DNA of 64,000 bases from Nitrospirae bacterium GWC2_57_13 (lineage in GTDB: Bacteria; Nitrospirota; UBA9217): NCBI GenBank assembly GCA_001805055.1, contig MHDZ01000015.1, forward strand, positions 1,263 to 65,262, written 5' to 3'. Positions 6,140 through 21,702 of the stretch are shown here, one piece after another. Position 1 is the first letter of the stretch. Each line of letters begins with the position of its first letter. The position numbers and the translations under genes were made by a program. The notes below the pieces were generated by a model. It was not told the origin of the DNA. It saw only the letters and a program-made list of their open reading frames with translations, and made no database searches.

Positions 6140-6760
6140 CTACTTGATCCTCAGGGACTGAAGCGAGCGTTCCACCGCTGATCGGGTCATTGAATCATAT
6201 GCGCCGGAGCACTGGAGCAACAGGCCCCTGTTGAGAAGCGCGACGAACAAAAAACTACCCGGCTCGTTATTTTTCTTGCTGATCGAAAGCCGGTACGCCT
6301 CTTTGCCGCTGATTTCGATCTTCTCTGCCTTGGATATCGTGATATCCTTCTCGTATTTTCCGTAGGTAGCGTCAATGGTTGTTTCGAGCAGGAGCTTGAC
6401 ATCGCCAGGCTTGATATCCATAGACGGTGGGAGTGGTGATGCGACGCACGTCAAAAAGAAGCGTTCCGTCTCCGGTCCCGTGTAGGGGCTCGCCATGGTC
6501 ATGAACAATACTCCGGATTTGCTCAGGCCTTCCGCGACGGGCCGCTTCCAGAACCGTTCATTCGTTTCCAGCATGGTGCGTTTCACCTCATTCGGATCTC
6601 TCCGTTCCCACGCCTTCGGCAGCTCGATGCTGAGACCCGTCGCCTCGTCGAAGAAAACGTAGGTATCGGGGGCCTTGCCGGCCGCATCGCGGGAAACCGC
6701 AGCGCAGGAAAACAGGACCAGAAGGAACAATCCCTGTGCAAAAAGACGAAGTAATCTCAT
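6140..6760 (-). CDS. Hypothetical secreted protein / putative lipoprotein
   Basis: Start MRLLRLFAQGLFLLVLFSCAAVS (signal peptide with possible lipobox FSC). SD GGGAGAG with a 5-nt spacer. ORF 6140..6805 trimmed. Confidence 0.6.
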   Translation of the reverse strand: MRLLRLFAQGLFLLVLFSCAAVSRDAAGKAPDTYVFFDEATGLSIELPKAWERRDPNEVKRTMLETNERFWKRPVAEGLSKSGVLFMTMASPYTGPETERFFLTCVASPLPPSMDIKPGDVKLLLETTIDATYGKYEKDITISKAEKIEISGKEAYRLSISKKNNEPGSFLFVALLNRGLLLQCSGAYDSMTRSAVERSLQSLRIK

Positions 6761-6821
6761 GTAGCTCTCCCTGGCAGCTTCTGATATCAGAGCGGTGCAT
6801 TTCATGCGCGCCTATACGCGA

Positions 6822-8447
6822 CTAATCGCAAAGCCGGCCCTTGTCCAGCGCCTCGCGCAGGGGACCCGATACCGAGGATGCGCAGATCGGAAGTGCAACC
6901 GCCTTCGCCTCAGCGGAGTTGCCCTCCGCTAAAAGAGTGAATGCCAGCATGGTTCGCAAACGCAAACCGAGGTCCGGCGTAAATTGTGTTTTCAGGATTT
7001 CCTCTTCACGCAATCCGGCCCGCAGTTCGCGTTCGGCGCCCGCGGGATCACGGGTGTCCAGAAGTGCAGCTGCACGGAAAAGGCGCGCGCGGGGATCACG
7101 GGGAAAACGCGCAACCAGGTCCGCGGAACGCGTTTTCAACTCGGAATAAGTCTTCTGAAGCTCATTTCCCGGGATTAACATCGCGCTGAGGACGCAGGAG
7201 TGGAAGTTCCTGGTGACCGGAACAAATGCCAGGGTGAATGCTGCGAGGCCTGCAACAGAAAACGCTGTTGCAAGCTTAAGGAATCGGGGCAAAGGACTCG
7301 TCTCGCGCCAGGTCTTGAGCATCGCCAAACCCATGACAGCACCGCTCAACGCGCCGCCGAGATGGGCGCCGAAATCGATGTGGTGGCCGGTCCCGGTCGT
7401 CGCCAATGGGATCAGCGACGGGATCAATACGCGCAGAAGGCCCATCTGAACCTGGGTGCGGCTCGCATCCATGGGCAGACGAAAGCTGCATACGAATGCC
7501 GCGGCAAAAAGTCCCATGATCGCCCCCGACGCTCCTACGGACACCATTGTTGCCGGGTTGACCGCCAGCGACATGAACGAACCGCCTATTACGCCGATCA
7601 CAAAGAGCGCGAAAAACCAGGCGCGGCCAACGAGGCCTTCAAGGACATAACCTGCAAAAAAAAGGGCAATACCATTCATCAGCAAATGAAAGGCATCAGC
7701 GTGAAGGAGTGCTGCCGATAAGATCCGATGCCATTCGCCGGACTGGAGCACAAGGGCCGGGTTCAATCCTCCCCATGCCAGAAGCGTACGGATACTGGGT
7801 TCCAGAAGGCCCGTCGCCGGTCCGATGCCGTAGCGCAGCTCTCCGATAAAAATGGCGACGAGTAGTGCCAGCAGCGAAATGGTTATGAACGGGAAAACAT
7901 GCTGCGGCACGGCCACCGCAGGCCGTTGCAATTCCGCGTCGCTGACACGGGGTGTACGCAACAACCGTTCAATGAACGCGCGCCCCGCCAAACGTCCATT
8001 GAAGGGCACGTTGCTCCAGACCGAGGCCGTTGAGGTGTCAATAGCCCAGGCAGAGATGACTACTTTGGAAAAGATGGACCGACGTTTCAGCAGCTTCAGC
8101 CGGTCGCGGTCCGCGCCGGTGATCGGCGTCCGCCCGACCTCGATGATCTGGATCACCACCGGCATCTTCGCACGGTTTATCGTGCCGGAGTATTTGAGGC
8201 ATTGTTTGCCGATTGCTTCCACGGCGTCCCGTGAAAGTTCGAATCGTTTCCCTGCATGCGCTTCGCCGTCGATCAGGCAGAGGACCTGGAAGCTCATGCC
8301 GTCCGCGCGCGTAAGAACGATATCACTCCCTGAAACAAGACCGTTCGCCTCCGGCACTGTACCGGAAGTGAAGCCCTTCTTTGCCATGTACTGCTTGGCC
8401 AGGTAGGCCGCGAACGACTGAGTGCCTGCATTGCTCTGCGCTTCCAT
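6822..8447 (-). CDS. Rhomboid-family intramembrane serine protease with an N-terminal cytoplasmic domain and C-terminal TPR-like tail
   Basis: Rhomboid core HLLMNGIALFFAGYVLEG, catalytic GASGAIMGL and HLGGALSGAVMGL. Start MEAQSNAG with SD GGAGGAGGG. ORF 6822..8504 trimmed. Confidence 0.8.
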   Translation of the reverse strand: MEAQSNAGTQSFAAYLAKQYMAKKGFTSGTVPEANGLVSGSDIVLTRADGMSFQVLCLIDGEAHAGKRFELSRDAVEAIGKQCLKYSGTINRAKMPVVIQIIEVGRTPITGADRDRLKLLKRRSIFSKVVISAWAIDTSTASVWSNVPFNGRLAGRAFIERLLRTPRVSDAELQRPAVAVPQHVFPFITISLLALLVAIFIGELRYGIGPATGLLEPSIRTLLAWGGLNPALVLQSGEWHRILSAALLHADAFHLLMNGIALFFAGYVLEGLVGRAWFFALFVIGVIGGSFMSLAVNPATMVSVGASGAIMGLFAAAFVCSFRLPMDASRTQVQMGLLRVLIPSLIPLATTGTGHHIDFGAHLGGALSGAVMGLAMLKTWRETSPLPRFLKLATAFSVAGLAAFTLAFVPVTRNFHSCVLSAMLIPGNELQKTYSELKTRSADLVARFPRDPRARLFRAAALLDTRDPAGAERELRAGLREEEILKTQFTPDLGLRLRTMLAFTLLAEGNSAEAKAVALPICASSVSGPLREALDKGRLCD

Positions 8448-8500
8448 TATCCCTCCTCCATGTAAGACGGGCCGCTGCCACAGCAGAGGCAAGCATGCGG

Positions 8501-9004
8501 TCAAATCGGTGGAAGCTCAACCATGAGACCTTTTTCCCTGGCAAATGCGATGAGCTTCTGCGTGCTGCCCATTTTGTACTTATAGTCGCCGGCTTTCGAC
8601 TGCCATTTCAGTTTTCTGCTGTTCATAACGAACGTAAACCGGTGACGTTTTGGACTGAACATCAGACCGCCACCGAACATAAACGCGATTGCCAATGCAC
8701 CCACCGGCACACGAGTGCCTGCCGGAATGTCGGAACTAAGAATAAAGCCAACCAGAAGAACAAGGAACGCACCCAGCATCATGGGTAGAAACGCATGACG
8801 CGTTTCGTAGGTAATGCGCGAACATTGACCCAGAGGAAACTCGACCAACTCGAAGGGCTTCATCGCCAGTTCCTTGCGCTTCACAAATACGATCTTGCGC
8901 GTTGTAACGGAGGCCACCTGGTTCGGATTCCTGGCGTACTCATCGGGATGGACGAAGATGGCGATGGATTCTTCTTGCATGGTGGGTTGTTCCTGCGTGT
9001 TCAT
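8501..9004 (-). CDS. Hypothetical membrane protein (2 TM)
   Basis: Start MNTQEQPTMQEESIAIFVHPDEY preceded by GGAGGAA. Two hydrophobic helices in the centre. Function unknown. Confidence 0.5.
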   Translation of the reverse strand: MNTQEQPTMQEESIAIFVHPDEYARNPNQVASVTTRKIVFVKRKELAMKPFELVEFPLGQCSRITYETRHAFLPMMLGAFLVLLVGFILSSDIPAGTRVPVGALAIAFMFGGGLMFSPKRHRFTFVMNSRKLKWQSKAGDYKYKMGSTQKLIAFAREKGLMVELPPI

Positions 9005-9286
9005 TTCTCTCTCATTCCTCCAAAACTGACTGCCGGCTTTAGGACTCGGCATTATTTGCGCATCCGGGTTGGACGGCAGGTTGAACGAAAATTGAAACGA
9101 CATAATACGTACAGGTTCCGACAGCATATCAACTCTGCAGAAAAGACCGCACAGAAACTGATACAATCATCCATTCCATGGCTGCTCACCACCTCTCCTG
9201 AGCACCCGAAGGCACGGTGGAGCTCCCGACGTCCGCTCGATCCCGTGGCGAGCTATCTCTCTGCAGGACTAAGAATCTCCGACCAT

Positions 9287-10108
9287 TTATTTAAGCTTGT
9301 CTCCGCTCAGTTGCTTCGCCTTCTGGACTGTCTGCTGAAATCTCGAATCGTTTTTCAACTGCGGCTTCTTGTTCAGAATCAACGTGAGCGTATCTTTTGC
9401 CGCGTCGATGCTCCCCGTGGCTGCATACGCGATCGCGCAGGCATACATGAATTCTTCGTGAGAACTCACCGTTCTATTTAATGCATACGTCCGGTCGGCA
9501 GACCTTAGCGCCGCTTTGTAGTCCCCAGCGTTTGCATACGCTATGGTCAGGTTTCGGTATACGTCCCATCGATTGCCGTCTTCAAACTGGCTCATCTTTT
9601 CCAACGGACCGATGGCGCCGCGGTAGTCTCCGAGTTCCAGGCGAAGGTTCCCAAGGAACAGATAAAACGGCGAATAGTCCGGATGCTGCTCTATGAGCCT
9701 GGCGGCCCTTTTCTCGATTATCTCCAGTTGCTTGCGGTCCGGTTCCGTGCGGGCGTGCGCTTCTCGCGAATCAGCGTTCAGCCTGACCATTTCCATCATC
9801 GCGCGGTAATGACCCGGCAGCTTATCGTTCCTGAGTATGGGATCCAATACATCCCGTGCTTTCGCATATTGACCCAACAGGACATGCACCGTCGCCAGCC
9901 GCGCCTCATATAAGCCCGTTCCTTTGCACTTTGCCTCTAATTTCTGCCATTCCGCAAGCAGTTTGTTATAATCCTGCCCGCTGCCGCCACCCTGACCGGC
10001 AGACAATCGGTCCCACTGTTGGTCACACCACTCAGCGCTTTCTCCAGCGATGGAAAGTTGTGGTATGAGTACAAGCACTGCCAGAATCAATAACGATCGA
10101 GTATGCAT
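9287..10108 (-). CDS. Secreted TPR-repeat protein
   Basis: Signal peptide MHTRSLLILAVLVLIPQLSIAGES. Multiple TPR-like helices (LGQYAKARDVL, YANAGDYKAALRSADRTYAL). SD GGAGGGGG. Confidence 0.7.
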   Translation of the reverse strand: MHTRSLLILAVLVLIPQLSIAGESAEWCDQQWDRLSAGQGGGSGQDYNKLLAEWQKLEAKCKGTGLYEARLATVHVLLGQYAKARDVLDPILRNDKLPGHYRAMMEMVRLNADSREAHARTEPDRKQLEIIEKRAARLIEQHPDYSPFYLFLGNLRLELGDYRGAIGPLEKMSQFEDGNRWDVYRNLTIAYANAGDYKAALRSADRTYALNRTVSSHEEFMYACAIAYAATGSIDAAKDTLTLILNKKPQLKNDSRFQQTVQKAKQLSGDKLK

Positions 10109-10265
10109 TTATTCCCCCTCCAGGAGATTAAAAATTCAAAATCGTATAAGAGCACTCGCTATTATTGCAATTTTCAAGTTCTTAACTCAGTGCCTTTCAA
10201 AGAGCCATTGGCCTGGGGATGTGCAGGACCGCGCTTTCTACGGCAGCCGACCACATGGTTCGGCC

Positions 10266-10640
10266 CTAATTCTCGTTTACCCGCTTCTTCATCCTGATTG
10301 ATCGCAGCCATTCAAGGTCCTTCTTCGTCCCGTTATGGTATCTGATAATCTTGCCGTCACCCGTGATCTCCATCCAGCGAAAATCGCCCAACGTATTCAA
10401 GGGATAGGGCCCCCACGCAGTCACGATCCAGACACCATTCTGATGCGAGGTCACCTCCAGATGTACGCCCTCTGCCCAATAGGGCGGTTCCCTTCGCACT
10501 ACTTCCGCTCTCGCAATCTGGAGTATTGCCTGTTCCCGTATCTTTACTTCATCGCTCTTTTCGGCGTCCGTGAAGTAGTGAGACGCGCAGGAACACAGCG
10601 ACGCTATCGAGAGCATAACAATTATTATCAAGATTCTCAC
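10266..10640 (-). CDS. Small lipoprotein, hypothetical
   Basis: MRILIIIVMLSIASLCSCAS has a lipobox LCSC. GTG start at 10640, with an alternative ATG at 10616. About 105-aa mature domain. Confidence 0.55.
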   Translation of the reverse strand: MRILIIIVMLSIASLCSCASHYFTDAEKSDEVKIREQAILQIARAEVVRREPPYWAEGVHLEVTSHQNGVWIVTAWGPYPLNTLGDFRWMEITGDGKIIRYHNGTKKDLEWLRSIRMKKRVNEN

Positions 10641-10665
10641 AATAGTAGCTTTCCGGCCTGTAGGC

Positions 10666-12102
10666 TCAATCGAACATTTTCTCCAACTGCTTTCTCACCG
10701 TTCCTGACTCAGGCACCGCCGACCAGCTTGGATAACCCTTCTCACCAGTCGACTTCCACCACTTCAGGACCGCCGGCGGGATGGCACGATGAGGTGCAAG
10801 CCTTTCCGGGAACACGGGCGAGACAAAGGCGGCGCTCCGGGTATAGCTGTCCCAGAGCCCGTCCGAGCAGGCATAGCACGTCCCGCCCGTCAGAAGCACC
10901 TCGATGCCGAGCGCGTCGTTATGGACGATCGGCCGCACTTTGGTCAGGTCCAGCTCGGTTGCGCTCTCGATCATTTCATCATTGATCGCCTTGACAGCCT
11001 TTGCGCCAAGGGCCGTCATAACAGCGTCGTGTTCCGTCTGCGTGAACAACGTTTGCATGGATCCCCCGCCCTTTCGCTGCTGCTCATCAGCACGCTTTTT
11101 CTGAACTGGCGCTGCCAGGATCTTTTCGCCCGTCTCAACGTTCACAATGATCATCTCATGTCCCATGCCGCCGTGTGCCGCTCCGCAGCCATAATAATAC
11201 GTTTTCGGGACGACAAAGAGCCATGGGCCGACCATGCCGAGCACCTCAAATTCCGTGCTCCGGTCACCGTATTCGTCTCCCTCCGCCGCCACGATGACGG
11301 TCCGCGTCTCCTTGCCGTCCGGACCGGTCCTGATGATCGACAGTTCAGGCTCCTCGGCATCAACCAGCTTCGGCCTGGCATCAGGGTCCTTAATGTCAGC
11401 GGTGAAGCAATCAGCATTCTTGACCTTTCGCTTCTCGATCCTGACCTCAGAGAACGTTCCATTGATGATGCTGACAGGCAACGCGCCTTTCCTGCGTTTT
11501 ACGACGGTCCCTGAATCGTCGATCCACAGGAGTTCGCTCTGGAGAGGAGCCCCCTTTTTGTTCTCCTGCGATATTTTCCACACCAGAAAGCCATCACCGG
11601 ACACAGCATGCGGCGTCGACGCAGAAGGCGCATCCTTTTCTCCGAGAATTATGAACGCATCTTTCGTTTTTCGAAGCACCAGGGCCGTGCTTGCGTCGCC
11701 TTCTTTCACAACACCCTTGGCACTCTTTATCTTATAATGAAATGAGACGGCGACCTCCCTCTCACGATCAGTGACTACCGGCTGGACCTTGAGCGAGAGA
11801 AACAGATGCTCCCGGTTCGGCCAGCGGTCGAAGTACTTCTCCTTGTCCGCCGCAACAGCCGCCTTGCTTACCCGTCCAAGCTTGTAGAAATCCACCTCAT
11901 CGGCGTAGAGCTTCATGACCTCGTCGAAGTTTTCGTTCTTCTGGCTAAGGTCCAGCCACTTCGTAACAAACCTCAGCACCTCGACCTCACCTTCGATGTT
12001 CAAGGGGAAGTCCTTTGCCCACAGCATGCCGGGCTGAGTACATATAAAGACGAAGAGCATCAAGACAATTCTTCCCATGACCGCCGTGATCCATCGAGAC
12101 AT
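10666..12102 (-). CDS. Secreted protein, paralogue 1 of a 3-member family sharing an N-terminal ~120-aa domain (NTF2/SnoaL-like resemblance)
   Basis: Signal peptide MSRWITAVMGRIVLMLFVFICTQPGMLWA. Shared domain WLDLSQKNENFDEVMKLYADEVDFYKLGRVSKAAVAADKEKYFDRWPNREH...VLRKTKDAFIILGEKD. SD GGAGGA with a 7-nt spacer before ATG 12102. C-terminal ~300 aa is unique. Confidence 0.7.
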   Translation of the reverse strand: MSRWITAVMGRIVLMLFVFICTQPGMLWAKDFPLNIEGEVEVLRFVTKWLDLSQKNENFDEVMKLYADEVDFYKLGRVSKAAVAADKEKYFDRWPNREHLFLSLKVQPVVTDREREVAVSFHYKIKSAKGVVKEGDASTALVLRKTKDAFIILGEKDAPSASTPHAVSGDGFLVWKISQENKKGAPLQSELLWIDDSGTVVKRRKGALPVSIINGTFSEVRIEKRKVKNADCFTADIKDPDARPKLVDAEEPELSIIRTGPDGKETRTVIVAAEGDEYGDRSTEFEVLGMVGPWLFVVPKTYYYGCGAAHGGMGHEMIIVNVETGEKILAAPVQKKRADEQQRKGGGSMQTLFTQTEHDAVMTALGAKAVKAINDEMIESATELDLTKVRPIVHNDALGIEVLLTGGTCYACSDGLWDSYTRSAAFVSPVFPERLAPHRAIPPAVLKWWKSTGEKGYPSWSAVPESGTVRKQLEKMFD

Positions 12103-12217
12103 CCTTTTGTCCTCCATGACACAAAACATCTATTCATTGCTGCGCAGAGCCTGATAAAAACATACTGCTTCGCCGACTTCTTCCCCTCACGTAATCGGCC
12201 CCGGCAAAAACGCCCGC

Positions 12218-13090
12218 TCATCTAAAATAGATATCCACGTAATCAGTTGCCTGATCGCAAGGGTTGTCCATCTTCACAAGCCGCCAGTATTTCCGTTTGC
12301 CGGTTATCCGGAACGTCATCTCCCCTTCACGTATGCAGGGCTTGCCCCCGTTAATGTGATATACCTTTGTGACGATCGTACCCCTGAAGGTAAATTCGCC
12401 GGCGCCGACTTTTGTGATGATGCCGCTGATCGTGACGTAATCGTCGTTCTTCTCGCTTTTCTGTTCTCCTTTGATGGATAGTGCGCCGTTCTGCTCCGTA
12501 ACAACAGCCTTGCCAAAGTGGTCCCAGCTTATCCACTGGAGGGACAGGAGATGTTCTCCCAGCAGCTGCGTTTTCGCCTGCTCATCGTTTCCTGTGCCGC
12601 CGTCTGAGATGGCGCCGCTCTTCTCCCCCGCCCCTTCCTTCTCGCTCACAATCAAAATCCTGTCGTTCTGCTTCCGCAGCACGAGCATCGTTTTGGCATC
12701 GCCCTGACTCGATTTCTTGCTGTTGCTGATCTCGTAATGGAACACCACAGCCACCTTTATTTCATTCTCCCCATTTCCAGAAGACACGGTGATGGTCTCA
12801 GCAACATGCTCACGCATCGGCCAGCGGTCGAAATACTTGCGCTTGTCCGCCCTGACCACATCTCTAGTGACCCGGCCGAGTTTATAGAAGTCTACCTCGT
12901 CTGCATACAGCGCCATTACTCCAGCGAGGCTATTGTTGTCCTGGCTCAGCTCCAGCCACCGAACGACGACGGCCCTGGCCTCTTCTCCACCGGTCAACAT
13001 TGATTCCATTGCAGTCAGCGTGCCGGCCGGAATGTTAACTGACAAAAAAAGTATTCCGTAAACGATAAACCGCACTATGTGCTTTACCAT
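12218..13090 (-). CDS. Secreted protein, paralogue 2 (the shared domain followed by a Gly/Ser-rich region and a C-terminal domain)
   Basis: Signal peptide MVKHIVRFIVYGILFLSVNIPAGTLTA. Shared domain WLELSQDNNSLAGVMALYADEVDFYKLGRVTRDVVRADKRKYFDRWPMREH...VLRKQNDRILIVSEKEG. SD GAGGTG with a 6-nt spacer. Confidence 0.7.
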   Translation of the reverse strand: MVKHIVRFIVYGILFLSVNIPAGTLTAMESMLTGGEEARAVVVRWLELSQDNNSLAGVMALYADEVDFYKLGRVTRDVVRADKRKYFDRWPMREHVAETITVSSGNGENEIKVAVVFHYEISNSKKSSQGDAKTMLVLRKQNDRILIVSEKEGAGEKSGAISDGGTGNDEQAKTQLLGEHLLSLQWISWDHFGKAVVTEQNGALSIKGEQKSEKNDDYVTISGIITKVGAGEFTFRGTIVTKVYHINGGKPCIREGEMTFRITGKRKYWRLVKMDNPCDQATDYVDIYFR

Positions 13091-13123
13091 GCCATTCACC
13101 TCGCTCACGTAGAATCCAGGGCC

Positions 13124-13513
13124 CTACCTGGATTGCTTCCGAGCCACAATCTCAGCAAGCTTCCTGACGGACATTGTGGACACGATCTCCCTATTGTCTC
13201 TGCCGAGCTCATTGTCGGGTATTTCTATTTTATAGGCTTCTTCGAGCGCCATAACGATCTCTACCATATCCAGATCATCTGCGCGAAACTTCTGTTTTGA
13301 GAGCGGGACATCTGCGGCAATATCTCGGGGTTTAACCTGCAGAATATCGGCCGCGATCTTTCTCACCTGTTCCAGCAGTTTCGCGTCAACGGAGCGTACT
13401 GTCCTCGCCTTCGGCGCTGCCGGTCTCTGCTCCGCGCACACGCTGACCGGCGTCGCTGCAGTAACTGCGGCCGCAAGACACAGCATCAAGCGGATGATAG
13501 TACGAATGTTCAT
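13124..13513 (-). CDS. Signal-peptide-bearing acyl-carrier-protein-like protein with Asp in place of the phosphopantetheine-attachment Ser
   Basis: MNIRTIIRLMLCLAAAVTAATPVSVCA|EQ is an Sec/SPI-type signal. The mature part aligns to the ACP fold: LLEQVRKIAADILQVKPRDIAADVPLSKQKFRADDLDMVEIVMALEEAYKIEIPDNEL, compared with canonical [20 protein letters not shown]. The ATG overlaps the upstream gene's TGA (ATGA), indicating translational coupling. Confidence 0.6.
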   Translation of the reverse strand: MNIRTIIRLMLCLAAAVTAATPVSVCAEQRPAAPKARTVRSVDAKLLEQVRKIAADILQVKPRDIAADVPLSKQKFRADDLDMVEIVMALEEAYKIEIPDNELGRDNREIVSTMSVRKLAEIVARKQSR

Positions 13514-14085
13514 GACGGCAAGACCTCCTTCGTCGCCCCAGGCTGATCCAGGCGCTCTTGCGATGACTTCTCTCCTCCTCGCGTACGCCTCGAATTCACG
13601 AGCGTAACGACGGCGGCAAAGACAATTGTGATCTCGAACAAGAATGTCCAGTGAAACACAAAATTCCAGACCCACCAGCCGTATCTTGCGGGAACGTCGA
13701 ACATCACGAAATCGTGGCTCGAAAACGGCGCCAGCCAACGGACCTTGCCGACAATGGTATCAAGGCCAAGATGAATGAAAACATTCGAAAAAAAGATAGC
13801 TGCTGCGGGCAGGACCGATGGTTGCCTGAGGACGGCCCCTCCGGCCAGTACCAGTCCGAACAGCGCAAGCCAGAAAAGCGGGATATGCGTCCAGTAGCCG
13901 TGGTGCAGATACTGCCGGTCGTCGATAAGATAAAAATACAGCATGTCCAGATCAGGCAGCAAACTCCCAAGGAGGCCCAGCGCCATCAAGCGACCGTTGG
14001 ATTTAGTTGACGATTCGGTCTTGAACTGATTGCTGAGCAGCATGCGAGTCCAGAGATAGCCGGCAGGAAGATGTCCTATGAACAT
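13510..14085 (-). CDS. Membrane-bound metal-dependent hydrolase, YdjM/DUF457 family
   Basis: MFIGHLPAGYLW...LPDLDMLYFY...HHGYWTHIPLFW shows the His-rich DUF457 signature with several TM helices. SD AGGGGTG. Its stop overlaps the ACP-like start. Confidence 0.7.
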   Translation of the reverse strand: MFIGHLPAGYLWTRMLLSNQFKTESSTKSNGRLMALGLLGSLLPDLDMLYFYLIDDRQYLHHGYWTHIPLFWLALFGLVLAGGAVLRQPSVLPAAAIFFSNVFIHLGLDTIVGKVRWLAPFSSHDFVMFDVPARYGWWVWNFVFHWTFLFEITIVFAAVVTLVNSRRTRGGEKSSQERLDQPGATKEVLPS

Positions 14086-14246
14086 TCACGCACCCCTAAT
14101 ACGGGCAAGCCCCGCAAGCGGGACGAGGCCGGAAATGGAGATTGAACATTGTAAATTGCAGTAACGACCAGGCAAACGTCTTTTTTCTCCACAACTGCAC
14201 CGCTCAGTCGGGAAAAAATTCACATCCGTGCCTGTACCCATTTTTC

Positions 14247-14699
14247 TCAGGGGCTGGTTGCGATAAGCTTCGACTCCTCTACTCCCATTTTCCCTTTTTC
14301 TTTGTCCACGAGTTGCAGCTTGGAGCCGGCCGCCCATGTGCCCATCTTTACTTCCTGCCAGATATAATACGTTTCTCCTGCTTTGGCATCAAGGTTAAGC
14401 GTCGAGGTATTTTCCGTGACCGAGGCAAATTCGTGCTTTCCCGGAGGAAGCAGCCACATAAAATAGGTCTTCGAAGCCGTCTGACCTGCGAACCTGCCGT
14501 CCAGGTTCACGGTCATCTTGATGGCCGCGCCCATGGCTTCGTTGCGGTACAGATACACAAGCGCCTTGTCTTTCGGCGCCGTCATGCTCTTTGCCTTCAT
14601 GTCCATTTCGGGCGGCGCCATAGGCACCGACGCGCAGGCGCTGACCATCACGAGCATGGCGCCTGCAAGGACCAACAGCAACGACCTTTTCTTGTTCAT
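14247..14699 (-). CDS. Lipoprotein, DUF2846-like
   Basis: MNKKRSLLLVLAGAMLVMVSAC has a lipobox. ALVYLYRNEAMGAAIKMTVNLDGRFAGQTASKTYFMWLLPPGKHEF matches the DUF2846 pattern. SD AAGGAGGG with a 5-nt spacer. Confidence 0.65.
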   Translation of the reverse strand: MNKKRSLLLVLAGAMLVMVSACASVPMAPPEMDMKAKSMTAPKDKALVYLYRNEAMGAAIKMTVNLDGRFAGQTASKTYFMWLLPPGKHEFASVTENTSTLNLDAKAGETYYIWQEVKMGTWAAGSKLQLVDKEKGKMGVEESKLIATSP

Positions 14700-14751
14700 T
14701 CTATCCCTCCTTCTACCTCGTATTTGATTCGGGTTTCTCCCGACTGAGCGG

Positions 14752-15105
14752 TCATTTGATCAAAGCATCTCTCCCCCGTCCCAAGCACCATGTAGCGTAA
14801 TTCAACGGTTCAAAACCGGGGCACTCACTGGCCAGCTTCTGGGGATAGCTTACCACAGGACAGGGCCGTTCTCCGGTAAAATGATAGTAGTGTTCCCCGT
14901 CCTCGCCATAGAGCCACCAGTCGCCGGAGCCCGGATTCAGCACTGTCGGCTCGAAGCTGAATATCGAAGACTGCCTGGGAATAACAAAAAGCGGATCAAT
15001 CGCGAGAAGCCACACATTGCTCACAATAGGAGTCATCAGGAGAATAAGCAGAACCGCAAGTAGAACCGCTCCTGCTGCACCGCTTGCGATCTTTCTATTT
15101 CTCAC
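14752..15105 (-). CDS. Small membrane protein, hypothetical
   Basis: GTG start 4 nt after the stop of the upstream paralogue-3 gene. N-terminal TM helices (AAGAVLLAVLLILLMTPIVSNVWLLAI), then a Cys/Trp-containing tail. Confidence 0.45.
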   Translation of the reverse strand: MRNRKIASGAAGAVLLAVLLILLMTPIVSNVWLLAIDPLFVIPRQSSIFSFEPTVLNPGSGDWWLYGEDGEHYYHFTGERPCPVVSYPQKLASECPGFEPLNYATWCLGRGRDALIK

Positions 15106-15109
15106 CCTG

Positions 15110-16264
15110 TTACCGCTCCCTCTCGCTTACGATCACGAATCCCCTTTCCATCTTGTGCAGTACAAGCACGGCGCCTGCTCTCCCTTCAATGCTCTTTCTG
15201 CCGTCCGACAGAGTATAGTGAAATACCAAACTCACCATTTTGTCGCCGATCTCATTGTTGTCGGAAATGTCGATCGATTGCAACGCGTGCTCCCGCTTCG
15301 GCCATTTGTCGAAATATTTGTTCTTGTCTTCTTCAATAGCAGCCTTCTTTACTTTCCCTTGCTTGTAAAATTCCACCTCTTCGGCATAGAGCGCCATGAT
15401 GGCGCCGAAGTTCTCATTCTTCTCGCTCAATCGAAGCCAGACTTCGATGAATTGCATGGCCTCCTTATCCGTCGCCGGCTCCCCTGTCATCTGAGCCAGT
15501 GTGTAGACTCCGCGGTTGAATGTATAACGCCTTGTTCGATTTATTTTGATGATCCCATCACCCAGTCGTTCGGAATCAGTGCCCCTTGTCACAACAAGGA
15601 TGTCAAAGAACTCCCGAGGTAATGCGGGAAGAAACGAGATGGTTGAGTCGAAAGAGTAGCACTTTTCTTTTTCAGTGCAGGCGCCTGTATTGTCTCCCGA
15701 GGTGTCGTAGATAGAGAGATCTTTGAGTTTTCCCCGATGCTCATACACGAAGGCTTTTGACCCCGCGTAGTATCCTCGATTTCCACCGCCTGTCTCGAAC
15801 AGTACGCCGAATCGCTCGGCCCCGATTTTGACCAACTCTCCACCGTGCCCGTAGCCATGGGCGCCCTGGACGAGGACATTCCGCGCCACAGCATCGACCC
15901 GCCAGCCATTTGCCACTTTCGTCATCGCCGCGGCGCTGATCGTCGCGCCGCAGGTCTGGCACTCCCCGTGATCGGCACGCTGCGTGAAAAAGTATAGCCT
16001 CTCGACAGTACCCTGCTTGAACGGAATCGTCTTAAGCGGCCAGTCATCTTCCGGCGGAGGGGCCATCGGATCCTGCTTCTTCGGCTTCCATTCAGAATAG
16101 CTTTTTTTCGGGTCGTACTTTCCTTTGATGACGGCGAGTCCCTTGCCGGGGTTGAATTCGCCGACGATAATGGTTCCCGCCTGTGTCTTCTGACCGGCGG
16201 CGGATGCACCGGGATTCAGCATCAGGAACAGGAGTAGAGAGATTGATATAACACCGGTTTTCAT
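15110..16264 (-). CDS. Secreted protein, paralogue 3 (unique N-terminal ~230-aa domain, with the shared domain at the C-terminus)
   Basis: Signal peptide MKTGVISISLLLFLMLNPGASAAG. C-terminal WLRLSEKNENFGAIMALYAEEVEFYKQGKVKKAAIEEDKNKYFDKWPKREH...VLHKMERGFVIVSERER. SD AAGGAGGA with an 8-nt spacer. Confidence 0.7.
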   Translation of the reverse strand: MKTGVISISLLLFLMLNPGASAAGQKTQAGTIIVGEFNPGKGLAVIKGKYDPKKSYSEWKPKKQDPMAPPPEDDWPLKTIPFKQGTVERLYFFTQRADHGECQTCGATISAAAMTKVANGWRVDAVARNVLVQGAHGYGHGGELVKIGAERFGVLFETGGGNRGYYAGSKAFVYEHRGKLKDLSIYDTSGDNTGACTEKEKCYSFDSTISFLPALPREFFDILVVTRGTDSERLGDGIIKINRTRRYTFNRGVYTLAQMTGEPATDKEAMQFIEVWLRLSEKNENFGAIMALYAEEVEFYKQGKVKKAAIEEDKNKYFDKWPKREHALQSIDISDNNEIGDKMVSLVFHYTLSDGRKSIEGRAGAVLVLHKMERGFVIVSERER

Positions 16265-16286
16265 ATTCCTTGTCCTCCTTTGCTAC

Positions 16287-17861
16287 TCACTTCCCTTTTC
16301 CCGCCCCAGGGGCCCGAACGCTCACTCCACGCGCCTTGAGCATCTCGATCACTTGCTCTTTCCAGCGCTGTTGTGCGTGTCCGGCAGGGACCTGGACGGA
16401 ATTCACCACCGCGGCGAGATCTTGCAGGTTTTTATTCAGTCCCCGTTCGAGCAGGTAGGCCGCGAGCTCGAGCCGGCCTTTTTGCACGGCCTCTTCCGCG
16501 GCGGAATCCCTGCTCCACCGGTGAATGTTGATGTTCGCCCCGTGTTTGAGCAGGAGATCTATGCCTTCTTTTCCCCCGGTTCGGACAACGGCATACAGAA
16601 GCGGATCGCCCTCGGGTCCGTACAGGTTGGGATCGCCGCCGCGCCCGAGCAGCAGCTCGAGCAGCTTCAGGTCTCCCTTCGCGGCAGAGGTGTACATGGC
16701 CGAGCGTCCCTTCTGGTCTTTGTAGTTCGGATCAGCGCCCAGCTTGAGCAGGTATTCCGCGCCCCTGAGGCTGCCCGCTGTTGCCAGCCGCATGAGCGGC
16801 GTTGCGCCGTCAATGCCGACCATGTTCACGTGCGCCCCTTCGCGAAGCAGGCTGTCAACGCCTTTGAAGTCGCCCCGGGCGGCCTGCTCGACGATCTTCG
16901 CCACGAGCTCGTCTCCATGCTCCAGCAGCCAGGCGTTATAGGCGTCTTTGGCGTCGCCATCGTATTCGCGGAGCCAAGCCTCGCGCTTCGCGCGGTCCGG
17001 CATGACCTTTTCGAGGTACAGGCTGTAGTAGGCGTTCATGCCGTAACCATACTTCTGAATATAGGCATCACGAGCGCGAGAGTCAGGAAAGGCCCGTTCC
17101 AGCTCCTTCTGCAAGGCCGCAGAGTCCGGCTGACGGGACAAGCCGGCGATAAAAACGGGGAACTTGACCCCTCGCGCCCTGAGCATCTCGATCACCTTTT
17201 CTTTTGTTCGCTGCTGCTTTGACTCTTTGGGAACCTGTGTGATTTCCACGCCTTTTGCCAGGCCCCGCAGGTTATAGGTGAGACCGCGATCAAGGAAATA
17301 AACCACCAGGTCGAATCGGCCGAAGGTGAGGGCGTTGTCTGCTGCCGTGTGCTTCATCATGCCCGTGTGGCCGTTGATGTCCGCGCCGCGCTTAAGAAGA
17401 ATTTCGATGTTCTTCTCGCGCAACTGGCTGACGGCAATGTGCAACATCGGCTCATCGTGCTCCCCTCCGCGCAGGTTCGGGTCGCCCCCGTACTTGAGAA
17501 TGAGTTCGAGGAAATCCGGCCTGTCGCCTCCTGCCGCAAGGTACATAGCCGATATGCCGCGCTTGGCGTCCTCGTAGTTCGGATTCGCCCCTGCCTTGAG
17601 CAGATGTTCCATGCCCTTGAAATTGCGCGTGCCCATCACCCACAGAAGCGGCGTGATCCCGTCCCTGCCGACCGCGTTGACGTCGGCGCCGGCACGGATC
17701 TGCGCATCAACTTCCTGAAGGTCGCCGTGACTCGCGGTATCGACAAGCCTGGCCACGCGCTCGTCCGGGAATGCCTCTTTGACCGTCATGCCGCCGAATT
17801 TCTTTTCCCAGAAGCCGGCGAGCAATGCCGGAATGATCATCAAAAGTAGTATTTTTTTCAT
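16287..17861 (-). CDS. Ankyrin-repeat protein with N-terminal signal peptide (two 4-5-repeat ANK blocks separated by a helical linker)
   Basis: MKKILLLMIIPALLAGFW signal. Multiple ANK repeats (DGITPLLWVMGTRNFKGMEHLLKAGANPN, GISAMYLAAGGDRPDFLELILKYGGDPN, DGATPLMRLATAGSLRGAEYLLKLGADPN and so on). Start re-assigned to ATG 17861. Confidence 0.85.
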   Translation of the reverse strand: MKKILLLMIIPALLAGFWEKKFGGMTVKEAFPDERVARLVDTASHGDLQEVDAQIRAGADVNAVGRDGITPLLWVMGTRNFKGMEHLLKAGANPNYEDAKRGISAMYLAAGGDRPDFLELILKYGGDPNLRGGEHDEPMLHIAVSQLREKNIEILLKRGADINGHTGMMKHTAADNALTFGRFDLVVYFLDRGLTYNLRGLAKGVEITQVPKESKQQRTKEKVIEMLRARGVKFPVFIAGLSRQPDSAALQKELERAFPDSRARDAYIQKYGYGMNAYYSLYLEKVMPDRAKREAWLREYDGDAKDAYNAWLLEHGDELVAKIVEQAARGDFKGVDSLLREGAHVNMVGIDGATPLMRLATAGSLRGAEYLLKLGADPNYKDQKGRSAMYTSAAKGDLKLLELLLGRGGDPNLYGPEGDPLLYAVVRTGGKEGIDLLLKHGANINIHRWSRDSAAEEAVQKGRLELAAYLLERGLNKNLQDLAAVVNSVQVPAGHAQQRWKEQVIEMLKARGVSVRAPGAGKGK

Positions 17862-17952
17862 ATGGTATGCCCCTTGTTTACTCACTTACTTAATGCTTTT
17901 CGCCATCGTTCACTCCGGCGCCATGAGCCTTTTTACCCGGTCGTGGCTGCCA

Positions 17953-18234
17953 TCAATCCCTACAAGGGCCTTCGTCCACGAGTTCCTTCGTGATATATAC
18001 GTCCCGGCCGCCTTTTTCATCGGCTGTCCCGTCGCTGCCGCCTTGAGAAGCGCGTCGGGCTCCTTCTTCGAGATCGTCACCCGGATCGTGCTCCTCCATC
18101 TCCTTGACGGCCTTCTCATACTCCGGCCTGTAGACGATCTTCTTCTGCTTGATCATCTCTTTGGCGCTCAGCCACGCGCCGCGTTGACGTTCCAGATCCA
18201 GGAGCATCACCGGATCAAGTCTCTTATAAAGCAC
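17953..18234 (-). CDS. Small hypothetical protein (93 aa, GTG start), possibly the 3' part of a frameshifted or decayed gene
   Basis: Charged, non-low-complexity ORF. Its frame continues upstream without ATG to a TAG at ~18338. An adjacent frame encodes MYDSDFNRFCRGTGAHSEAVEYFQVHSGR* ending at ~18309. No SD. Confidence 0.3.
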   Translation of the reverse strand: MLYKRLDPVMLLDLERQRGAWLSAKEMIKQKKIVYRPEYEKAVKEMEEHDPGDDLEEGARRASQGGSDGTADEKGGRDVYITKELVDEGPCRD

Positions 18235-18465
18235 TCTCCGTTCTTCGGGAGTGAGCTTGGGGAAGTCGGCCCAGAACCGGAAGTACTGCTCCTTTGTGAG
18301 TTGCGCGTCAACGGCCAGAATGGACTTGAAAATATTCTACTGCTTCGCTGTGAGCTCCTGTTCCCCGGCAAAACCGGTTGAAGTCGGAATCATACATATT
18401 GTGCAGATTCCTATAAGCGTTATAAGTGGCCGTTACATGAAATTTTTCTCCTGATGCTGATCCAA

Positions 18466-19848
18466 TCACTTCTTCTGCCACGTCTTTCCACCGTCCTTGC
18501 TCACATACAGGTCCTTCGGCCCGCCGAAACCAACGGCTCGATCTCCACACTCGGTCGAGAGGTTGAGGCCCTCATTGTCGAGGAACCTGATATGCGCGCA
18601 GTTCGGCGTGGGCATGGAGCGCGGGTCCCAGGCCGTTTTCCCCGCAGCGCGGAAAAAGAACGGCCGCTTCTCGGTCTCCATATAGAAGGAGATCTCGCGC
18701 TCCGCGAACAGGCCCGCGGGCTTCTCACGCAGCAGTCCTATGCTTTTTATCTCTACGGGAAGTTCCACGGATTTGAATTCGGTCCGGCCGTAGGCACTGA
18801 ACAGCGCAAGGGGCGGCGTAGCGATGTAAGCATAATACCCCGTTGCTCCCGGCGAGACCTTCGCGTCCGATTTTTTCTCGGTCACGGACCCAAGGTACGA
18901 CTGCCACCGGTCCCCGTTGCTCGTACTGGCGTAGATCTCCAGCTTGTCGTCAACGATGACGAGGTCGCTCGTCCCCAGCGCATACACCTTGCCTGCCCGC
19001 AGTCCGTCAGGCGTCCGCTTCTCCGCGACCTTGCCGTTCTGGACGAAAAAGAGTCGGTTGTTCTTCGTCAGGAAGGCAAACCGGTCCTTCACGTAGTTCG
19101 GCGATTCGCTCTGGAGACTTGAAACCGTAGGAACGTCTATGAGTCTAACGCCGCTGACCTTGCCGTCCTTGTTTTTCTGCACTTCCGCCAGCGTACCCAC
19201 ATCCCCGGCTACATAGGTGGCATAACCGCCCGAAGAGGCCGCATCTTTTATTGCGATCTCCTTCCGCAGCGCCTCGAGCAGATTGGCCGGCATCAGATCG
19301 CCCGGGGCGAGGGTCATCGTGTCGGTCCTGAGCTTCTGCGCGAGCAGCGGATAGCCGCTCTTCAGAAAATGCTTCATATCCGATGTGTTGTCGACAAAGA
19401 GACGCATGAACTTCTTCTGTTCCTTGTCGCCCGGATCGGGATAGAGGACGATCAGCCCGAGGTTCGTTATCTCCTTCGACCGCACCACGAATTTCCGCTT
19501 GACCGGCAGCGTGGTCGTGTTCATCGTCGTGACCGTATAGCCGCCATATGAACTCGATCCGCCGTAGGACTCGCTGTACAGGCCGCTGAGCTCATATTCT
19601 CCCGGACTCAAAGGAAACGCGATGAACCCGTTCACTACCTTGCCTTTCTTCCGGTTATTGATCAGAACCTCTTTATAGATCGACCATTGCCACAGCCGGC
19701 CGATGCCCACCACCTGGCCGACCACGAGCCCCTTGTCCCCGATGTCCTCGGGCAGGTCGGGCCGGTAATCCGGCAGGCTTACGCAACCCGTCAGGAGCAC
19801 CATGCTGAGTGCACCCAGCATGACGAATAAGATCAACCGTTTTCTCAT
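18466..19848 (-). CDS. Lipoprotein with BNR/Asp-box repeats (beta-propeller-like), tandem paralogue A
   Basis: MRKRLILFVMLGALSMVLLTGC has a lipobox. Asp-box motifs STSNGDRW and SKDGGKTW. About 45% identical to the downstream gene. SD GGGGGAAG. Confidence 0.75.
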   Translation of the reverse strand: MRKRLILFVMLGALSMVLLTGCVSLPDYRPDLPEDIGDKGLVVGQVVGIGRLWQWSIYKEVLINNRKKGKVVNGFIAFPLSPGEYELSGLYSESYGGSSSYGGYTVTTMNTTTLPVKRKFVVRSKEITNLGLIVLYPDPGDKEQKKFMRLFVDNTSDMKHFLKSGYPLLAQKLRTDTMTLAPGDLMPANLLEALRKEIAIKDAASSGGYATYVAGDVGTLAEVQKNKDGKVSGVRLIDVPTVSSLQSESPNYVKDRFAFLTKNNRLFFVQNGKVAEKRTPDGLRAGKVYALGTSDLVIVDDKLEIYASTSNGDRWQSYLGSVTEKKSDAKVSPGATGYYAYIATPPLALFSAYGRTEFKSVELPVEIKSIGLLREKPAGLFAEREISFYMETEKRPFFFRAAGKTAWDPRSMPTPNCAHIRFLDNEGLNLSTECGDRAVGFGGPKDLYVSKDGGKTWQKK

Positions 19849-19898
19849 GAGCTTCCCCCTTTCGTGTTTCTGCGTGCCGCAAGAAACGCGGCACCAGC

Positions 19899-21260
19899 CT
19901 ACTTCTTCGTCCATCGGCGGCCGCCGTCGCTGCTCTGGAACGTCTCCTTAAGACAGAGGGTCTCCAGGTTATTGCCTGCATCATCGAGGAATCTGATTCC
20001 ATAACAGGAGATCATGGGCATGGCTCTTGTTTCCCAAGGCGACGCTGCATCCTTCTTTACATAGAAGGGAAAGGGCGTGTTCTTGGTCCAGGCAGTTATG
20101 TGCGTTTCGACGAACAGGCCGGCCTTCTTTTCCGTGACAGTCTGGATATTGCCGAGCTTTTCCGGAAGCACAAGCTTCGCGAGCTCCGTCTTGCCGTAGG
20201 CGCCCGCGATCAGGACCGGAGGGTAGGTGCTGTAGACATAGTAGGAGCGTTCACCTGTCACGAACTTCCTCTTTACAGGCTCTTTTACCACAAAGCCTTC
20301 ACTCGACTTCCACGTCTCTCCGTTGTCGTTGCTCACGTAGATCTCCAGGAGGTCGTCCACGATCACGATGTCCTTGCTGCCCAGGGCGTAGAGGTTACCG
20401 TCGCGCAGGGCCGCCGGCGGCCGCTTCTCTTTCACCGCGCCGCCCGTGACGAGGAACAGCCTGTTGTTCGCCGTCATAAAAACCAGCCGATCGCTATTGT
20501 GGTCCGACGACTTGGACACGATGTTCGACAAGGTTTCCACATCGAGCACTTGCACATCAGAGATCTTGCCGTCCTTGCCCCTCTTCACCTTCGCCACCGT
20601 GCCCACGTTCCCGGCAACATAGTCCGCAGCAGCGCGCGACGCAACAAATTCCTTGAGAGCAATGTCCCTCCTGAGCGCCTGCAGCAGCTTGGGGTCCTTC
20701 AAGTACTCTCCGGCCGACAGCGTCATTGCATCGACCTTCATGCTGGCTGAAAGCGCTGGATAGAAGGTCTTCAGAAAGCGCTTCATGTCGTCCCTGTTGT
20801 CGATGAAGAACCGGAAGAACCGCTTGTTTTCCTTGTCCTCGGGATCGGGGTACAGGAGAATGAGGCCGATGTTCGTGACCTCTCCCGGCCAAATGGTGAA
20901 CTTCCGGTTCAGCGGCATGGTCGTTGAATACTTCGTGGTATATGTCACGTTCCCGTTCGTGGTCGATCCACCATAGGTTACATAGTTCAAAGCATCGAGA
21001 GAATATTCGCCCTTGTCGAAAGGAACGGCGATGAGCCCCTTTACCAGGCCGTTGGTATAGGTCTTCTTGCCTATCACGATATTCCCGCTGTTCGTGGACC
21101 AGCCGGACAGCCGGTTGATGCCGACCACCTCTCCCACCACGATCCCTTTACCGCCGATCTCCTCGGGCAGTTCCGGCCGGTACTTCGGCGCAACAGAACA
21201 CCCGGCAAACATAATGATAGACAGTACGAGCACGCCCAACCCTGGTCCGCGTGTCATCAT
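19899..21260 (-). CDS. Lipoprotein with BNR/Asp-box repeats, tandem paralogue B
   Basis: MMTRGPGLGVLVLSIIMFAGCS has a lipobox. Asp-box motifs SNDNGETW and SSDGGRRW. Collinear with paralogue A. SD GGAGGAGA with an 8-nt spacer. Confidence 0.75.
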   Translation of the reverse strand: MMTRGPGLGVLVLSIIMFAGCSVAPKYRPELPEEIGGKGIVVGEVVGINRLSGWSTNSGNIVIGKKTYTNGLVKGLIAVPFDKGEYSLDALNYVTYGGSTTNGNVTYTTKYSTTMPLNRKFTIWPGEVTNIGLILLYPDPEDKENKRFFRFFIDNRDDMKRFLKTFYPALSASMKVDAMTLSAGEYLKDPKLLQALRRDIALKEFVASRAAADYVAGNVGTVAKVKRGKDGKISDVQVLDVETLSNIVSKSSDHNSDRLVFMTANNRLFLVTGGAVKEKRPPAALRDGNLYALGSKDIVIVDDLLEIYVSNDNGETWKSSEGFVVKEPVKRKFVTGERSYYVYSTYPPVLIAGAYGKTELAKLVLPEKLGNIQTVTEKKAGLFVETHITAWTKNTPFPFYVKKDAASPWETRAMPMISCYGIRFLDDAGNNLETLCLKETFQSSDGGRRWTKK

Positions 21261-21412
21261 GATCTGTATCTCCTCCATCATCCGGACATATTTTTTTCAG
21301 TATCGCCGACGATGGATGCCAGGTCAAGGTAATTTTCACATTTTCTTGAGGAGACCGCGAACAGCGGCCCGGTGTTTGCCTGAAAAGCTGCAACAGAATG
21401 CGCGATAAGGGC

Positions 21413-21449
21413 AAAAAAAACAGCGGGAACCTGATAATGGTCCCCGCTG
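21413..21449 (-). terminator. Rho-independent terminator (minus strand)
   Basis: Stem CAGCGGG/CCCGCTG (21421-21427 and 21443-21449) with a 14-nt loop, followed on the minus strand by a run of 8 U (A8 at 21413-21420 on plus). Confidence 0.45.
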
Positions 21450-21615
21450 ATGCGGCATGCCGCGCGATGGTGATCCTCGTGAGAGATCCTTTTGCCGATT
21501 CTTTATCCTCTTTAACGGCATTTGGACGCAGATGAACGCTGATAAATCAAGCAGAAGCCCATGATGAAACCTCGCCAAACAGACGACCGTCAACCATGAT
21601 TCGAGCTCCTGAAAA

Positions 21616-21642
21616 ATCCGTGTTCATCCGTGTCAATCCGTG
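21616..21642. promoter_or_regulatory. Three ATCCGTG direct repeats with 10-bp phasing (candidate transcription-factor binding array)
   Basis: aATCCGTGttcATCCGTGtcaATCCGTGgac. On the minus strand the array abuts a TTGACA hexamer. The 15-mer CCGTGTTCATCCGTG recurs at 38985-38999. Confidence 0.4.
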
Positions 21643-21702
21643 GACAAATGCTATTTTTTGCTTTATCACTGCTTCAACCCGCGACGTGCGATAGCGCGTC
21701 TA

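Follow-up and report, generated by a model that had tools for sequence, protein, structure and literature searches.

A predicted exported acyl carrier protein fold with aspartate at the phosphopantetheine site, encoded in a Nitrospirota genome

The stretch of 64,000 nucleotides from Nitrospirae bacterium GWC2_57_13 analysed in this work (contig MHDZ01000015.1; hereafter, the window) contains at positions 13124-13513 of the minus strand an open reading frame (ORF) for a protein of 129 amino acids, which displays the fold of an acyl carrier protein (ACP), a predicted Sec signal peptide, and an aspartic acid (Asp80) in the place of the serine that receives 4'-phosphopantetheine (Ppant). These features had been pointed out in an earlier note on this DNA, together with the overlap between this gene and an upstream gene of the YdjM/DUF457 family. 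We read the product, with a probability of roughly 0.55, as a Sec-exported and never pantetheinylated ACP-fold protein belonging to a widespread envelope family, which likely acts as a cofactor-free docking or adaptor module through its helix II. That the protein is exported and does not work as a carrier appears highly probable. Few bacterial proteins have been studied as thoroughly as ACP, which is regarded as strictly confined to the cytoplasm and dependent on its cofactor. The fold itself is known; what is new is an extracytoplasmic, non-carrier branch of it, or several of them, so that the ACP fold would also be used beyond the cytoplasm, as a module that needs no cofactor. All the features of the window described below are located on the minus strand.

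The gene and the fold of its product

The protein encoded at 13124-13513 (stop codon at 13124-13126) reads MNIRTIIRLMLCLAAAVTAATPVSVCA followed by EQRPAAPKARTVRSVDAKLLEQVRKIAADILQVKPRDIAADVPLSKQKFRADDLDMVEIVMALEEAYKIEIPDNELGRDNREIVSTMSVRKLAEIVARKQSR, the predicted cleavage site lying between both parts. The ORF is a real gene under selection and no annotation artefact, since it is preceded by a strong Shine-Dalgarno sequence (AAGGAGG at 13524-13530, 10 nucleotides 5' of the ATG, kept in the DNA alignment with the relatives L001 and L012) and shows low ratios of nonsynonymous to synonymous substitution (dN/dS) against three relatives (0.16-0.21 for the whole gene and 0.07-0.15 over the domain).

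The product matched the Pfam profile PP-binding (PF00550) with 30.7 bits, above the gathering cutoff of 20.8, and stayed below all the cutoffs of the NCBIfam ACP models (TIGR00517 and the NF002148-51 equivalogs; best scores of 48.4 and 48.1 bits vs. 71 and 70.45). A phmmer search of the PDB sequences retrieved ACPs only (E-values from 8e-8, about 1e-7 to 1e-6), the best match being the complex I subunit NDUAB1-beta. The AlphaFold2 model, obtained with the family alignment as input, reached a predicted local distance difference test (pLDDT) of 90-98 by blocks for residues 41-129 and of less than 50 for the N-terminal 40 residues. The four-helix core (residues 44-128; 13130-13384) comprised helices at 44-58, 80-94, 100-103, and 116-128, with an additional short helix at 107-113. 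When the model was compared with the PDB by Foldseek, the top 50 matches were ACPs, all with probability 1.0 and target-normalised template modelling (TM) scores of 0.74-0.87. Taken together, the PP-binding match, the ACPs retrieved from the PDB, the core modelled at pLDDT >90, and the Foldseek results confirmed the ACP fold that the earlier note had proposed.

In every one of the HMMER alignments printed with solved ACPs, the query segment ADDLDMVEIVMALEE paired with the AD(S) stretch, which places Asp80 (codon GAT, 13274-13276) at the Ppant serine; the serine of the D-S-L motif is therefore missing from the protein, as had been claimed from the sequence. The residue belongs to helix II, the "recognition helix" of ACPs (D79-D80-L-D-M-V-E-I-V-M-A-L-E-E-A-Y, 13232-13279, delimited by the same alignments), which retains equivalents of the E. 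coli ACP residues D35, E41, and E47/E48 (here D79, E85, and E91). The isoelectric point (pI) was about 9.1 for the mature protein and 6.6 for the domain alone.

The predicted export signal

The signal peptide was called by hand from sequence rules. Residues 1-27, MNIRTIIRLMLCLAAAVTAATPVSVCA (codons at 13433-13513), include a positively charged n-region (R4 and R9), an h-region (LMLCLAAAVTAA) within the 10-15 residues of the rule, and a c-region, TPVSVCA followed by EQ, with small residues at -3 (V) and -1 (A); Sec type I cleavage is predicted after VCA. The Sec signal described in the earlier note, with its V-C-A before E, was thus borne out on these rules. The lipobox pattern [LVI][ASTVI][GAS]C was absent from the protein and from its Nitrospirota clade, whose signal is type I-like. 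The hydrophobic N-terminus was also kept in the relatives of the protein.

A family with aspartic or glutamic acid at the serine position

A word-index search retrieved 24 homologues, all of them (24/24) with Asp or Glu in the serine column and all (24/24) with a hydrophobic N-terminus; they have in common the motifs PLSKQK..AD[DE]LD.VEIVM and [ST]VRKLA.IV. When 1.84 billion representatives were searched exhaustively with a profile, 183 reached E <1e-10; beyond these, the matches merge into ordinary ACPs. Among the 172 best of these 183 plus the window protein, the serine column was occupied by Glu in 93, Asp in 67, Ser in eight, and other residues in five, that is, by Asp or Glu in 160 of 173 sequences. 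A hydrophobic N-terminal segment was present in 140 of the 151 Asp/Glu members having an N-terminal extension, and a lipobox Cys in 57 (PROSITE-style pattern) to 79 (loose pattern) of the same 151. Only two of the eight matches retaining the serine had a hydrophobic N-terminus (Fisher P = 2e-4, in a list biased by the query profile). D79, L81, E85, and E91 are invariant columns of the family, and the equivalents of D35, E41, and E47/E48 are invariant or nearly so. Serine-bearing orthologues devoid of a signal, which the earlier note had named as the sign of an artefact, were looked for, and the outcome spoke for the note: Asp or Glu is present in the 24 homologues and in 160 of the 172 best representatives, and most of these proteins have a hydrophobic N-terminus or a lipobox. 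Judging from these sequences, the family is one of predicted extracytoplasmic proteins, mostly lipoproteins, in which the serine has given way to Asp or Glu while the rest of the docking surface of helix II is almost unchanged.

When GTDB species genomes and JGI metagenomes were scanned with sequence patterns, members turned up in no fewer than seven phyla: Nitrospirota, Acidobacteriota, Planctomycetota, Verrucomicrobiota, Myxococcota (Minicystis rosea), Bacteroidota, and Pseudomonadota. The N-termini of these members were mostly lipoprotein or type I signals, and some were pilin-like. In their sources the family members are annotated as "acyl carrier protein" or "phosphopantetheine-binding protein", which we flag as a systematic mis-annotation. 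A full-text literature search found no account of exported or serine-less bacterial ACPs. The protein, which had been called unusual, stands out against what has been published but not among known sequences, since the family is widespread. An evolutionary signal remains to be explained, as a signal peptide almost always comes with Asp or Glu at the serine site, recent acpP duplicates included.

Among the matches of the profile search, rare exceptions to this pairing were P0147 and P0146, which are ACP-like and carry a signal of the lipoprotein or type I kind but retain the serine (GADSLD). The Asp/Glu module also appeared fused to other domains: to STAS in a lipoprotein (P0155), to TPR plus thioredoxin (P0115), inside a signal-bearing GlcNAc 2-epimerase-like protein (L037 5584-7164), and behind a DUF1559/pilin-like N-terminus in Planctomycetes (L030, L051). 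In Verrucomicrobiota, ACP-like lipoproteins (L028, L035, L040, L043, L047, L066) shared a conserved C-terminal extension of ~110 amino acids with no Pfam match and with the motif NEPQDGGLR..QVG.[FY].[ED]LS[QK]LPNPRG[HY]ELVFVP. The domain fusions would fit a general-purpose binding or adaptor module and define no pathway.

Probable repeated recruitment from AcpP

Some exported Asp/Glu copies were closer to AcpP than to the window protein over the aligned domain. L128 showed 75% identity to the alphaproteobacterial AcpP vs. 38% to the window protein; the corresponding values were 68% (to E. coli AcpP) and 38% for L114, and 59% (to the neighbouring AcpP) and 33% for L049b. The latter is found in Rubellimicrobium mesophilum DSM 19309 (L049 3654-6712), where fabD, fabG, and a serine-bearing acpP are directly followed by L049b, with a type I signal and a Ser-to-Glu replacement; L049b looks like a recent tandem duplicate of acpP turned into an exported non-carrier. 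Since a signal and a carboxylate at the serine position were gained in lineages nearer to AcpP than to each other, the pattern speaks for convergence and for the acidic residue being causally tied to export, and this suggests that exported Asp/Glu forms have probably been recruited from AcpP repeatedly.

Short ACP-like proteins with Asp or Glu at the serine site and without a signal were also found (L053 5986-6222, L123 352-621, L144 2911-3144, L119 628-867, L067 5899-6138, as well as in L058, L065, L136, and L149). The copy in L053, on a contig of a "Nostoc" metagenome-assembled genome (MAG) and near a transposase-like ORF, was 91% identical to E. coli AcpP in the aligned region, and a conserved signal-less Asp/Glu type of 79 amino acids occurred in Gammaproteobacteria/Rhodanobacteraceae. 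Such cytoplasmic ACPs, which cannot be modified, might have an inhibitory or regulatory role.

Comparison with known ACPs

Housekeeping AcpP (PF00550; TIGR00517) has the same four-helix fold, with about 30-33% identity to the ACP-like protein, and a nearly identical helix II (D-x-L-D-x-V-E-[IL]-V-M-A-L-E-E), the residues contacting AcpS included. In contrast, the ACP-like protein presents Asp instead of the Ppant serine, a predicted cleavable export signal, and a near-neutral or basic pI vs. ~4 in AcpP; its loop I carries PLSKQK with a one-residue insertion, and ~7 extra residues plus a short helix stand ahead of helix IV. Genes for fatty acid synthase (FAS), polyketide synthase (PKS), nonribosomal peptide synthetase (NRPS), or phosphopantetheinyl transferase (PPTase) were found neither among the window neighbours nor enriched near family members. 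Hence the fold and the Pfam domain of ACPs are there, and what characterises housekeeping AcpP (the defining serine, cytoplasmic location, no signal peptide, strongly acidic pI, and biosynthetic context) is not; the protein does not belong with the functional ACPs.

Plasmodium mACP is an essential binding subunit that lacks both the serine and Ppant (Falekun et al., bioRxiv 10.1101/2021.04.13.439690). The apicomplexan mACPs and the window protein are alike in having the ACP fold minus the modified serine, as corresponds to a structural ACP devoid of Ppant, and an N-terminal signal that targets them to a compartment. They differ in that the former are in a eukaryotic organelle with the LYR partner Isd11 and Nfs1, whereas the latter is predicted in the bacterial envelope and gave no indication of a LYR-type partner. 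The residue replacing serine in apicomplexan mACP is reportedly hydrophobic and not acidic. Other precedents of structural docking by ACPs are NDUFAB1/ACPM of complex I, MmpL5-AcpM, WaaP with acyl-ACP, and STAS-ACP (STAS being also the fusion partner in P0155); these involve holo- or acyl-ACP on the cytoplasmic or matrix side, usually with the acyl-Ppant arm in the interface. By analogy, the window protein may resemble Plasmodium mACP in its mode of action and, more loosely, the ACP of complex I or MmpL5.

Proposed role

With Asp80 in place of serine the protein would be unable to carry acyl groups, and it probably serves in the cell envelope as a small binding or adaptor module that needs no cofactor. 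Its acidic helix II would engage a basic patch on an envelope protein. The carboxylate that has taken the place of the serine would then have one of two roles, simply stabilising helix II at its N-terminus or imitating the holo-ACP phosphodiester. Docking through helix II is a tentative proposal. The broader suggestion made earlier, a non-carrier binding role, is a reasonable reading because the export signal and Asp/Glu are conserved in the family.

Neutralising D35, E41, and E47/E48 of E. coli ACP, which contact AcpS, stops modification by this enzyme in vivo. Since the equivalents of these residues are retained, any serine at position 80 would in all likelihood receive Ppant before the protein is exported, and selection against serine is expected. 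The replacement is nearly always acidic (Asp or Glu) rather than Ala, Gly, Asn, or Thr, so that a further reason is needed. Acidic residues are preferred in the first turn of helices; this preference at the helix N-terminus and mimicry of the holo-ACP phosphodiester are the candidates. A more far-reaching version, in which the exported Asp/Glu proteins are convergent "phosphomimetic holo-ACP" modules (acpP being duplicated, a signal added, and the carboxylate mimicking the phosphodiester for ACP-style docking in the envelope), seems rather unlikely. If it were true, there would be an unrecognised ACP-dependent layer in the periplasm or outer membrane, possibly handling lipids, in which YdjM and/or NTF2-like proteins would take part here. 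Should a partner be found, new aspects of the envelope might come to light in Acidobacteriota, Planctomycetota, Verrucomicrobiota, and Nitrospirota.

Several points weigh against the exported docking module. The call for export comes from sequence rules and from the lipoboxes of the family, and several positive charges follow just after the predicted cleavage site. The counts from the list of representatives are biased, as the query profile itself contained the signal region and Asp/Glu. The preference for Asp/Glu could be purely structural and silent on function. The mature protein is not acidic overall, as indicated by the pI values given above, and is thus not a full electrostatic mimic of ACP; only the face of helix II resembles it. 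Moreover, no partner emerged, since Pfam profiling of 148 plus 75 neighbour ORFs, at about 100 loci, gave no enriched family (DUF4440 ranked first in the set of 75 ORFs, where three of its four matches corresponded to sequences added on purpose).

Genomic context

The gene located upstream (13510-14085) encodes a polytopic membrane protein of 191 amino acids that belongs to the YdjM/DUF457 family (PF04307; 48.3 bits vs. a cutoff of 29) and shares with it the conserved His/Asp positions, H5, D44, D46, H61, H62, H67, H105, and D109 being visible in the translation; it differs from the family by a C-terminal extension of 17 residues and by the lack of any NCBIfam match. It was 67% identical to the L001 orthologue. 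The earlier note had called it a hydrolase: the family assignment held, "hydrolase" being a family annotation only, and no biochemical function for YdjM/DUF457 was found in the literature search. One literature match for "DUF457" was discarded as false, as it corresponded to DUF4579.

The ATG of the ACP-like gene does overlap the TGA of ydjM (ATGA, 13510-13513). In relatives with 83-85% identity, YdjM ends at a TAA located 46 nucleotides before the same AAGGAGG-N10-ATG, whereas in the window, according to the DNA alignment, this ancestral TAA is TCG and 17 more codons are read (13510-13563) up to the overlapping TGA. Elsewhere, the overlap appeared only in the 98%-identical groundwater contigs L152 and L153. 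The overlap is therefore an apparent recent, lineage-specific loss of a stop codon and not a conserved design. The translational coupling and stoichiometric co-expression with YdjM that had been deduced from it fail, as the overlap is missing in relatives and the ACP-like gene has a strong ribosome-binding site of its own.

The order YdjM, ACP-like protein, SnoaL-like/PM1083 protein was kept in L001-L004 and L012, from Nitrospirota MAGs and groundwater metagenomes. A YdjM neighbour was absent at homologues ≤61% identical to the window protein, in the contigs that could be read, and from about 100 further family loci; the co-occurrence with DUF457 genes proposed for checking was thus limited to the Nitrospirota clade with ≥83% identity. 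The ACP-like gene is co-transcribed in this genome with ydjM and the SnoaL-like/PM1083 gene, and its membership in the operon holds within that clade. A weak sigma-70-like promoter upstream of ydjM (14148-14175; 9/12 consensus positions) is a possible operon start of low weight, as neither this sequence nor anything else in the terminator and promoter scans was above shuffle expectation.

The third gene (12218-13108), co-oriented and downstream, encodes an exported or anchored protein of 296 amino acids, likely with its true start near 13090, in which an N-terminal SnoaL-like (NTF2-like) domain precedes a C-terminal PM1083 domain (PF27214). The match to SnoaL_2 was weak in the window protein, and SnoaL_2 and SnoaL_3 were matched in the L001 orthologue. 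A profile made from 87 homologues located PM1083 at residues 163-296, which ruled out that PM1083 was the N-terminal SnoaL-like domain itself. PM1083 was found beside ACP-like genes only in the Nitrospirota clade. An all-against-all BLASTP of the ORFs around 50 genome loci yielded mostly antisense-ORF artefacts, the only real conserved neighbours being YdjM and the SnoaL paralogues inside that same clade. Most family members are stand-alone genes in unrelated contexts. The only recurring association of the family, a weak one, was with exported NTF2-like (SnoaL/DUF4440) proteins, which are encoded next to the ACP-like gene in three lineages and form part of a fusion in one case.

Alternative explanations

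The hydrophobic segment might be an uncleaved anchor, in which case there would be no export and the ACP-like domain would lie at the cytoplasmic side of the membrane. Five Arg/Lys in the 17 residues past the segment, vs. two ahead of it, and a Pro at the predicted -1 position of some close relatives speak in favour of this. However, the N-termini of the family are textbook signals of the lipoprotein or type I kind, with linkers rich in Ser, Pro, and Thr behind them, and a cytoplasmic unmodifiable ACP that keeps the residues contacting AcpS and partners would be expected to be harmful, in view of the toxicity of apo-ACP; we consider an anchor very unlikely. The chance that the protein is still a carrier, modified at another residue or by other chemistry, is close to negligible. 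Ser72 of the PLSKQK motif, one candidate site, is invariant in the 24 closest homologues, but other residues (Ala, Thr, Gly, or Val) stand at this position in the wider family; the PPTases known so far modify the serine with which helix II begins, genes for a PPTase, a synthase, or a ligase are absent from the vicinity in the window, and coenzyme A is unavailable outside the cytoplasm.

Other explanations concern the partner of the protein. The adjacency and common orientation of both genes throughout the Nitrospirota clade (the window, L001-L004, L012, L152, and L153), along with the ATGA overlap in the window, would fit a dedicated stoichiometric subunit or regulator of YdjM. This is nevertheless unlikely considering the origin of the overlap, the 46-nucleotide spacer and the Shine-Dalgarno sequence described above, the absence of YdjM from the more distant loci, and the different conservation of both proteins between the same two genomes (67% identity for YdjM vs. 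85% for the ACP-like protein). A two-part envelope module with exported NTF2-like proteins, in which the acyl-chain pocket would bind a hydrophobic or lipid ligand non-covalently, is also on the unlikely side, though somewhat less so. The SnoaL-like/PM1083 gene is directly downstream in the window clade, as is DUF4440 in the P0019 lineage (L010, L070, L078) and DUF4440/SnoaL_2 in the P0022 lineage (L007-L009); in P0169 (L071 2057-2830), a signal peptide and a degenerate family domain are naturally fused to SnoaL_3/DUF4440; and a Glycolipid_bind gene lies nearby in L005 and L007. Against these cases, such neighbours are missing at most loci, including those of the Acidobacteriota members of the PLSKQK sub-family, and NTF2-like domains are common in these genomes, so that adjacency by chance is expected. 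Finally, a decoy or immunity-type protein neutralising an incoming envelope-acting toxin by mimicry of ACP is highly improbable: no toxin domain or known immunity family was enriched beside family members and no polymorphic-toxin architecture was seen in the window, although the gene is in a variable island of exported proteins without known function, Imm70 and ankyrin-repeat genes occur in the syntenic island of relatives, L019 and L029 present rows of small genes, and the family is patchy, stand-alone, and without conserved neighbours.

Other genes around the locus

The immediate surroundings of the ACP-like gene include, besides YdjM and SnoaL/PM1083, proteins with DUF2846, ankyrin, and TPR domains. 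PM1083 is also widespread as a stand-alone protein of ~165 amino acids in Acidobacteriota, Lysobacter, Glaesserella, and Bacteroidaceae (P0194, P0196, P0218, P0230, P0253, P0291), and fusions with an esterase (PF00756), TIR (PF01582/PF13676), and SH3_3 were observed among the homologues of the 12218-13108 protein. The window contains three paralogous exported SnoaL-like proteins (10666-12129, 12218-13108, and 15110-16264), which share the motif ..W[LI].LS[QE].N....[VI]M.LYA[DE]EV[DE]FYK.G.V......A[DE]K.KYFD[RK]WP.REH and differ in their second regions, PM1083 being present in the 296-amino-acid protein only.

The locus is part of a long co-oriented run (6140-22239) of genes mostly for exported or membrane proteins without known function. 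Its gene content differs among relatives, L001-L004 adding Imm70 and others. Members of the run in the window are a rhomboid-TPR fusion (6822-8504), a TPR protein (9287-10108), a small lipoprotein (10266-10640), a DUF2846 lipoprotein (14247-14699), an ankyrin-repeat protein of 532 amino acids with an N-terminal hydrophobic segment (16287-17885), two paralogues of ~470 amino acids (18466-21281), and a DUF7079 protein (21703-22239).

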